From: Escherichia coli
GTDB lineage: Bacteria > Pseudomonadota > Gammaproteobacteria > Enterobacterales > Enterobacteriaceae
Length of the DNA: 64,000 nt
Reading direction: 5' to 3' (one strand)
NCBI RefSeq assembly: GCF_003790525.1
Contig: NZ_CP033635.1
Shown here: positions 19,221 through 21,496 of the stretch, in pieces
Position numbering within the stretch: position 1 is the stretch's first letter
Layout of the letters: every line of letters begins with the position of its first letter
Notes under the pieces: model-generated
What the model saw: only the letters and a program-made list of their open reading frames with translations
Databases searched by the model: none
What the model was told of the DNA's origin: nothing
Made by a program: the position numbers and the translations under genes

Positions 19221-19404
19221 CTTAATCCAGTGCAGTGTCTTAGCTGAATACAAGTCGCCAGGAGTATATGAATAAATCCCGGCAGCGGATAGCGTCAAGC
19301 CTGGCTTGCAGAAAAACTCGGAATAAACCTTATTTGTTGCAGCCCTGTGGCACAATGGTCAACATAATACCCTAACCCGACAACGCGAAAAAAAGAACTT
19401 TGCC

Positions 19405-20169
19405 ATGAAATTGAATATCCGCGCGCAAACTGCACAAAACCAGCACAATAATTCTCCCATCGTTCTTGTCCATGGTCTGTTTGGCAGCCTCGACAACCTT
19501 GGCGTACTGGCTCGCGATCTGGTAAACGATCACAATATCATCCAGGTTGATATGCGTAACCACGGTCTTTCACCGAGAGATCCGGTAATGAATTACCCGG
19601 CGATGGCGCAGGATCTTGTTGATACCCTGGATGCACAGCAGATCGACAAAGCAACATTTATCGGTCACTCCATGGGCGGTAAAGCGGTAATGGCTCTTAC
19701 TGCACTAGCCCCCGATCGCATTGACAAGCTGGTGGCGATTGATATTGCGCCGGTCGACTATCACGTACGCCGTCATGATGAGATTTTCGCGGCCATCAAC
19801 GCAGTCAGTGAATCAGACGCACAAACACGCCAGCAAGCAGCGGCAATAATGCGCCAGCATCTTAATGAAGAAGGGGTGATTCAGTTTCTGTTAAAATCTT
19901 TTGTTGACGGGGAGTGGCGCTTTAACGTGCCAGTATTGTGGGATCAGTATCCGCATATTGTGGGTTGGGAGAAAATCCCGGCATGGGATCATCCTACCCT
20001 GTTTATCCCTGGCGGCAATTCTCCGTATGTTAGCGAGCAGTACCGTGATGATTTACTGGCACAATTTCCACAGGCTCGGGCGCATGTGATTGCAGGCGCG
20101 GGTCACTGGGTCCATGCTGAAAAACCGGATGCGGTATTACGCGCTATCCGTCGCTATCTCAATGATTAA
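19405..20169 (+). CDS. ybfF: Alpha/beta-hydrolase esterase YbfF
   Basis: 254 aa; nucleophile elbow GHSMGG. Confidence 0.9.
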   Translation: MKLNIRAQTAQNQHNNSPIVLVHGLFGSLDNLGVLARDLVNDHNIIQVDMRNHGLSPRDPVMNYPAMAQDLVDTLDAQQIDKATFIGHSMGGKAVMALTALAPDRIDKLVAIDIAPVDYHVRRHDEIFAAINAVSESDAQTRQQAAAIMRQHLNEEGVIQFLLKSFVDGEWRFNVPVLWDQYPHIVGWEKIPAWDHPTLFIPGGNSPYVSEQYRDDLLAQFPQARAHVIAGAGHWVHAEKPDAVLRAIRRYLND

Positions 20170-20174
20170 CGCAA

Positions 20175-20190
20175 CTGATTAAAAACCCAG
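20175..20190 (+). promoter_or_regulatory. Candidate LexA box upstream of ybfE
   Basis: CTGATTAAAAACCCAG fits CTG-N10-CAG with AT-rich centre; ybfE is reported as LexA-regulated in E. coli. Confidence 0.4.
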
Positions 20191-20308
20191 CGTCCGCGTC
20201 GCTTTCCGCGCGTGGGCGTTGGCGTGACTCATCGCGCTGATGTATTATGGCGCGCTATCCATCCGGGCAGGCGCCTGGCTGATTGTTTCCCCCGAAGTCA
20301 CCAAGATC

Positions 20309-20602
20309 ATGGCCAAAGAACAAACGGACCGTACGACATTAGATCTGTTCGCGCACGAGCGTCGACCGGGACGACCGAAAACTAATCCGCTTTCGCGCGA
20401 TGAACAGCTGCGTATTAATAAACGCAACCAACTAAAACGCGACAAAGTACGTGGCCTTAAGCGTGTCGAACTGAAGTTGAACGCGGAAGCTGTCGAGGCA
20501 CTGAACGAGCTGGCGGAATCGCGCAATATGAGCCGTAGCGAGCTGATCGAAGAGATGTTAATGCAGCAACTGGCGGCGCTGCGTAGTCAGGGCATCGTTT
20601 AA
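20309..20602 (+). CDS. ybfE: CopG/RHH-family DNA-binding protein YbfE
   Basis: 97 aa from [14 protein letters not shown]; ORF-track start 20240 is an extension. Confidence 0.8.
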
Positions 20603-20741
20603 ATTTCCACTTTCATGTAGCACAGTGTGCAGTCCTGCTCGTTTGCTGATTCCGCAAGACTGCCTGTTCTGCTATGATTGCCTTTATCCGTGGGCAATTT
20701 TCCACCCCCATTTCAATAAGTTTCAAGAGGTTATTTCACTC

Positions 20742-21272
20742 ATGGCTATCACTGGCATCTTTTTCGGCAGCGACACCGGTAATACCGAAAATATCGCAAA
20801 AATGATTCAAAAACAGCTTGGTAAAGACGTTGCCGATGTCCATGACATTGCAAAAAGCAGCAAAGAAGATCTGGAAGCATATGACATTCTGCTGCTGGGC
20901 ATCCCAACCTGGTATTACGGCGAAGCGCAGTGTGACTGGGATGACTTCTTCCCGACTCTCGAAGAGATTGATTTTAATGGTAAACTGGTTGCGCTGTTTG
21001 GTTGTGGCGACCAGGAAGATTACGCAGAATACTTCTGCGATGCATTGGGCACCATCCGCGACATCATTGAACCGCGCGGCGCAACTATCGTTGGTCACTG
21101 GCCAACCGCGGGCTACCACTTCGAAGCGTCAAAAGGTCTGGCTGATGATGACCACTTTGTCGGTCTGGCTATCGACGAAGATCGTCAGCCGGAACTGACC
21201 GCTGAACGTGTAGAAAAATGGGTTAAACAAATTTCTGAAGAGCTGCATCTCGACGAAATTCTCAATGCCTGA
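20742..21272 (+). CDS. fldA: Flavodoxin 1
   Basis: 176 aa from [16 protein letters not shown]; flavodoxin FMN-binding signature. Confidence 0.95.
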
Positions 21273-21477: not shown

Positions 21478-21496
21478 TATAATGATACGCATTATC
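21478..21496 (+). promoter_or_regulatory. Fur-box-like operator at the fur/uof promoter
   Basis: TATAATGATACGCATTATC matches 16/19 of the Fur consensus GATAATGATAATCATTATC; overlaps the uof ATG, so promoter geometry is unresolved. Confidence 0.5.

Follow-up and report, generated by a model that had tools for sequence, protein, structure and literature searches.

A known, weak and lineage-restricted LexA box in Escherichia coli lies upstream of the ybfE core promoter

Introduction

Is the LexA-box-like sequence between ybfF and ybfE in Escherichia coli an SOS operator for ybfE? A sequence-only reading of a 64,000-nucleotide stretch of E. coli DNA (the window) had proposed a candidate LexA operator at 20175-20190, beginning 6 bp after the ybfF stop codon, and had noted that ybfE is described as LexA-regulated. 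The motif CTGATTAAAAACCCAG does occupy these positions on the + strand, starting at the sixth base past the ybfF stop (TAA, 20167-20169), and the description is borne out by the literature. PMC2585105 gives the same 16-mer for the LexA site of ybfE, attributing it to Fernandez de Henestrosa 2000; ybfE is placed among the classical SOS genes in Table 1 of PMC11228462, with a heterology index (HI) of 11 and a box described as 'predicted (weak)', and reviews count the gene in the LexA regulon. Since CTGATTAAAAACCCAG is identical to the literature box, the site is already known; it has been the published ybfE LexA box since 2000 and is rediscovered here. The original experimental reports are said to place ybfE in the LexA regulon, and Fernandez de Henestrosa et al. 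in 2000 reportedly confirmed it with Northern blots of lexA+, lexA(Def) and lexA(Ind-) strains.

What then does the box do? It could be a functional SOS operator, whereby LexA bound at 20175-20190 substantially represses ybfE, whether from an unusual upstream position, by a block to read-through from ybfF (a gene lacking a canonical terminator), or via a minor promoter absent from the transcription start map. Alternatively it could be a look-alike with no LexA occupancy in vivo, the motif arising from the context of a stop codon together with a hairpin, and the response of ybfE to damage and growth occurring by other routes. The place of ybfE in the LexA regulon, in the literature and in annotation, favours the first; the experimental reports that are said to put it there count against the second. 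Between these lies a weak box having at most a small effect, and this is the explanation that we come to prefer.

Results

The ybfF-ybfE-fldA locus

The stretch at 19400-20760 of the window was matched in 5424 of 5426 complete E. coli genomes, the best match (99.9%) being to strain SMS-3-5. In RefSeq this 1361-base match region is annotated with the ybfF esterase, ybfE as 'LexA regulated protein', and fldA. The gene order in the window, which has the opposite orientation to K-12, is seqA, ybfF, ybfE, fldA, fur. On the + strand ybfF occupies 19405-20169 (from the open reading frame list and the RefSeq annotation), ybfE 20309-20602 and fldA 20742-21272 (annotation; PMC4161252). RNA-seq places ybfE at the head of an operon, ybfE-fldA-uof-fur, whose transcription is shut off in stationary phase (PMC4161252). 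At least one E. coli genome has two copies of the ybfF-ybfE-fldA stretch, and in one record there is a plasmid copy.

For comparison, 80 loci encoding YbfE were collected from the Enterobacteriaceae and a few Erwiniaceae, and the 200 bases upstream were aligned. One of these loci lies on a 606-base contig labelled Geodermatophilus sabuli, an actinobacterium (NZ_JAAGWF010000077.1), where the encoded YbfE shares 87% identity with that of E. coli; enterobacterial contamination of the assembly is the most likely explanation.

The YbfE protein

A 120-amino acid open reading frame could be read from an ATG at 20240 (20240-20602), the start of which would lie inside the -10 region of the promoter and upstream of the transcription start at 20257 (see below). 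YbfE begins MAKE(Q/N)TDR in all 80 loci, and we therefore take the start to be at 20309, giving a protein of 97 amino acids. The ribbon-helix-helix (RHH) character suggested for this protein from its sequence is confirmed, with the Pfam model RHH_1 matching residues 52-89 at E = 1.7e-10 (40.9 bits; gathering score 20.5). The NCBIfam model PRK11675 'LexA regulated protein' matches YbfE from end to end (E = 2e-50), and a search of PDB sequences returned weak RHH matches only (CopG, YiiF), with E of 0.2 or higher.

YbfE shares the RHH_1 domain with RHH (CopG/Arc/MetJ) proteins and type II antitoxins, and has weak similarity to the antitoxin models BrnA, VapB and RelB that falls far under their cut-offs. 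It differs from them in a basic N-terminal extension of 50 residues that precedes the RHH domain, and in its genomic surroundings. A type II antitoxin gene has a co-oriented toxin gene adjacent to it, whereas ybfE is flanked by the ybfF esterase and fldA, and the open reading frame list contains no additional frame in the 139-base gaps on either side. The order seqA-ybfF-ybfE-fldA-fur is found in 72 of the 80 loci, the others being cut by contig ends, and the ybfE-fldA gap ranges from 144 to 285 bases. In this comparison the FldA query, which was read one base out of frame, acted as a marker of position only. With these neighbours kept and no toxin gene adjoining, the claim that YbfE has no cognate partner and is not part of a toxin-antitoxin pair stands.

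Sequence and score of the LexA-box-like site

LexA boxes of the E. coli type have the consensus TACTG(TA)5CAGTA. CTGATTAAAAACCCAG shares the palindromic arms CTG-N10-CAG and is A/T-rich on its left and in the centre. It differs in that the right inner half is C-rich, and that the half-sites are CTGA and CTGG, i.e. the T of CTGT is missing from both. The bare CTG-N10-CAG pattern is uninformative, because there are 32 copies of it in the window where shuffled sequences lead to an expectation of 12.85; the excess probably results from the frequent CTG and CAG codons. The remaining copies have poor scores as LexA boxes.

The window was scored with a matrix of 20 positions derived from 24 E. coli LexA boxes. 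The matrix is a reconstruction and not the original Lewis 1994 matrix; for six of the boxes the 16-base core is the one tabulated in PMC2585105. The 20-base site AACTGATTAAAAACCCAGCG (20173-20192) ranks first among the 63,981 window positions, with 13.5 bits and an HI of 9.8 (asymmetric) or 11.6 (symmetric). This score is level with that of polB, the weakest box of the training set; the published HI is 11, and all these values fall under the customary cut-off of 15. From the exact score distribution the probability of reaching this score is 5.2e-6 per position, corresponding to 0.33 occurrences per 64 kb and about 24 per 4.6 Mb genome by chance, and it was attained in 28 of 100 windows simulated with a first-order Markov model. 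Thus the matrix score for which the sequence-only reading had asked is the best in the window, yet marginal. AACTGATTAAAAACCCAGCG may be considered a plausible but marginal LexA box, whose standing above chance is not given by its sequence alone. The weak score tells against a functional operator, and the number of equally good sites expected by chance is consistent with a look-alike. Against a look-alike, however, the HI is among those of boxes to which LexA does bind, for example polB and dinB.

Position of the box relative to the ybfE promoter

A consensus scan locates a sigma-70 promoter for ybfE at 20219-20248 on the + strand, with a -35 hexamer TTGGCG (20219-20224), a spacer of 18 bases and a -10 hexamer TATTAT (20243-20248). 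By our own sigma-70 scoring it is within the 10 best of the approximately 64,000 positions in the window, and the same hexamers were described as the constitutive RpoD promoter of ybfE by Shimada et al. (PMC3946193). The transcription start map of Kim et al. 2012 (PMC3415461, supplement) contains a single start for ybfE, at 711173 on the - strand, with 889 reads; the 5' UTR is given as 52 and the upstream sequence terminates ...TATTATGGCGCGCTA. Placed on the window, this mapped start is the A at 20257 on the + strand, 52 bases before the ATG.

Relative to the mapped start the box extends from -82 to -67, with its centre at -74.5, and is separated from the -35 hexamer by 28 bases. In the canonical SOS genes the LexA box coincides at least in part with the -35, the -10 or the transcription start. 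In contrast the ybfE site lies about 75 bases upstream of the start, neither overlapping the core promoter nor placed just downstream of it. Because the box is outside the core promoter its role as an operator for ybfE is doubtful. The site is upstream of ybfE as had been claimed, but it is beyond the region from which LexA usually represses, and the term operator is open to doubt. A second promoter over the box was considered and rejected, since the interval 20060-20300 has no usable sigma-70 score except that of the mapped promoter. Both the distance of the box from the only mapped start and the lack of promoter-like sequence over it argue against the functional operator. LexA-independent behaviour has been found to accompany boxes that are distant and of high HI (PMC8072944).

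In the alignment of upstream sequences the -35 and -10 hexamers are near-invariant across the Enterobacteriaceae. They are followed by the GC-rich sequence GGCGCGCT (20249-20256), which lies between the -10 and the start and is almost invariant across the 80 loci. Promoters subject to stringent or growth-rate control typically have a GC-rich segment in this position. If GGCGCGCT were such a feature, it would fit the shut-off of ybfE in stationary phase (PMC4161252), and that shut-off is itself in keeping with control of ybfE by routes other than LexA, as a look-alike would require.

Control of ybfE by Fur was rejected. The best match near the ybfE promoter agrees with the Fur consensus at 10 of 19 positions, which is the background level. 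As a positive control TATAATGATACGCATTATC (21478-21496), just upstream of uof-fur and presumably the known autoregulatory Fur site, matched the Fur-box consensus at 16 of 19. The reason for considering Fur was that AZT induces its regulon without the involvement of LexA (PMC11228462).

Conservation of the box

The core of the box, TGATTAAAAA (20176-20185, + strand), appears in the upstream alignment as a conserved block at a fixed distance. At the position homologous to the box CTG is present in 50 of 78 sequences, CAG in 25 and both arms in 17. The presence of both is limited to Escherichia (5 of 5), Citrobacter (11 of 12) and Yokenella (1 of 1). Salmonella arizonae has CAT instead of the CAG arm, and Enterobacter has TTG instead of the CTG arm. 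A LexA box should keep its arms in the orthologous promoters of related genera; here they have been lost in most of the genera that keep the promoter, and this weighs against a functional operator.

Frame analysis of 81 sequences reveals a different relationship between TGATTAAAAA and ybfF. The TGA within it (20176-20178) is in frame with ybfF, and serves as the stop of that gene in 52 of the 81; a TAA inside TGATTAAAAA is the stop in seven more. In Escherichia the ybfF product ends LND, with the stop codon nine bases earlier than in most Enterobacteriaceae. Because the stop has moved nine bases upstream, the ancestral TGA is now intergenic and forms a second in-frame stop. An ancestral ybfF stop would account for the left half of the motif, and this is a point in favour of a look-alike.

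Within the sampled Escherichia sequences conservation of the box is 100%, although the bases directly beside it vary, and such perfect conservation favours the functional operator. Of 5426 E. coli genomes, 5209 have an identical 36-mer that includes the box with both its arms, a point against a look-alike. Control 36-mers were found in 5354 (ybfF coding sequence), 5310 (-10 and start site) and 4057 (hairpin loop and -35) of the same genomes. Set against these flanking segments, the box does not stand out as specially conserved among E. coli genomes.

A hairpin between the box and the promoter

RNA folding and covariation reveal a GC-rich stem-loop at 20185-20225 (+ strand) in the 3' untranslated region of ybfF. 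The segment 20160-20235 that contains the stem has a folding energy of -29.5 kcal/mol (z = -2.7). The hairpin segment is calculated at -26.3 kcal/mol on the + strand compared with -15.6 kcal/mol on the - strand, the difference being due to G-U pairs. The 5' foot of the hairpin includes the CAG of the box (20188-20190), which is paired with the TTG of the ybfE -35 in the 3' arm. Among 43 distinct sequences 74-75% of the cells are paired, with 43 cells changed on both sides. The covariation score was reached by none of 500 shuffles, and sliding the register reduces the paired fraction to 20-57%. Roughly one in four sequences departs from this register; these belong to the more distant genera.

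The CAG of the box is frequently changed to CGG. This retains the base pair, A-U becoming G-U, and destroys the LexA arm, so that selection at these three bases seems to act on the hairpin rather than on binding of LexA. Pairing within the hairpin would then account for the right arm of the motif, as the ancestral stop codon would for the left half.

The hairpin is probably a 3'-end structure of ybfF. Like an intrinsic (Rho-independent) terminator it is GC-rich, lies just past the stop codon, folds more stably on the coding strand and carries compensatory changes. It differs from one in having CGUGACUC in place of a U tract 3' of the stem, and a terminator scan made no call there. A terminator on the minus strand, where there is a run of five T, is unlikely in E. 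coli, as three G-U pairs become A-C mismatches with the loss of stability given above. A search of Rfam gave no match to the hairpin at E up to 1. Because the hairpin that follows ybfF lacks a U tract, read-through from ybfF into ybfE is plausible; this is a point for the functional operator, in the form where LexA would block read-through.

Expression of ybfE after DNA damage

Published work does not agree on a damage response of ybfE. A fusion of GFP to the ybfE promoter responded to UV in a dose-dependent manner with atypical kinetics, which supports a functional operator. In that UV study the fusion was an outlier that showed a late and strong down-regulation, and it was dropped from the later analysis. 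RNA-seq after exposure to AZT found ybfE to be raised 4.0-fold, with a lexA dependence of 0.74-fold, and the authors state that it 'is not lexA-dependent' (PMC11228462). There was no significant change in ybfE over a ciprofloxacin time course, and a study of ciprofloxacin in EHEC gives no ybfE transcript change. The mutagen MX had no effect on ybfE in Salmonella; nalidixic acid did induce the gene in that genus, yet no SOS box is identifiable there. The lexA-independence and the null results with ciprofloxacin and MX argue against a functional operator. The lexA-independence, and the induction in Salmonella in the absence of a box, are consistent with a look-alike. The sequence-only reading had held that a lack of SOS induction of ybfE would tell against it, and this is partly the case: AZT raises ybfE four-fold, but not in a lexA-dependent manner, and ciprofloxacin has no effect.

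Discussion

The explanation that we favour, by a modest balance of the evidence, is that this is the known LexA box of ybfE, weak, badly placed and restricted to a few lineages, having come about from the context of a stop codon and the foot of a hairpin, and exerting at most a small repression. In terms of mechanism, the left half of the box would be the ancestral stop codon of ybfF together with the A-rich sequence around it, and the right arm would be the foot of the 3' RNA hairpin of ybfF that pairs with the ybfE -35. LexA might then occupy 20175-20190 weakly, some 75 bases upstream of the one mapped promoter of ybfE, a strong and conserved sigma-70 promoter. Since the box does not overlap the core contacts of RNA polymerase, repression should be small at most, and dependent on conditions. 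The responsiveness of ybfE to DNA damage would be largely independent of LexA. We infer the weak occupancy and slight regulatory effect from the sequence of the site, its score, its position with respect to the promoter and its pattern of conservation. Several points count against this explanation: the Northern analysis reported in 2000, the name 'LexA regulated protein' in RefSeq and NCBIfam, the UV response of the GFP fusion, the conservation of the box in Escherichia and the reconstructed nature of the matrix.

The functional operator discussed above is an unlikely alternative. The UV response, the invariance of the box in Escherichia and the plausibility of read-through can be set in its favour, but it has to contend with a lone mapped start far downstream of the box, with transcription that does not depend on lexA and with arms that most genera have dispensed with. 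We give still less credence to a look-alike never occupied by LexA. The stop codon, the hairpin and the frequency of such sites by chance could between them generate the motif, but its HI is that of boxes known to bind, and both arms survive intact in nearly all E. coli genomes. Finally, it is very improbable that the box is a LexA roadblock or occupancy site at the ybfF-ybfE junction and not a promoter operator, in which case SOS would raise ybfE, and slightly flavodoxin and Fur, by read-through rather than by derepression of the promoter, and the early Northern evidence that is said to exist would be reconciled with the lexA-independence of the main promoter.

Our preferred explanation, a weak box with little effect, has a parallel in the LexA box shared by ssb and uvrA, where likewise a recognisable box lies beside a gene that is inconsistently induced in SOS. 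Induction of ssb by AZT was 1.5-fold with a lexA dependence of 1.0 (PMC11228462), and in PMC9505508 ssb induction is described as long disputed. With an HI of 6.2, however, the box of ssb and uvrA is the stronger of the two, and its control of uvrA is clear, whereas the ybfE box has no gene that it clearly controls.

We note that the label 'LexA regulated protein' is carried by ybfE on thousands of genomes, and that its basis is a marginal box. That box lies outside the core promoter, is present in a few genera only, and can be explained by a stop codon and a hairpin. The annotation should therefore be treated with caution.
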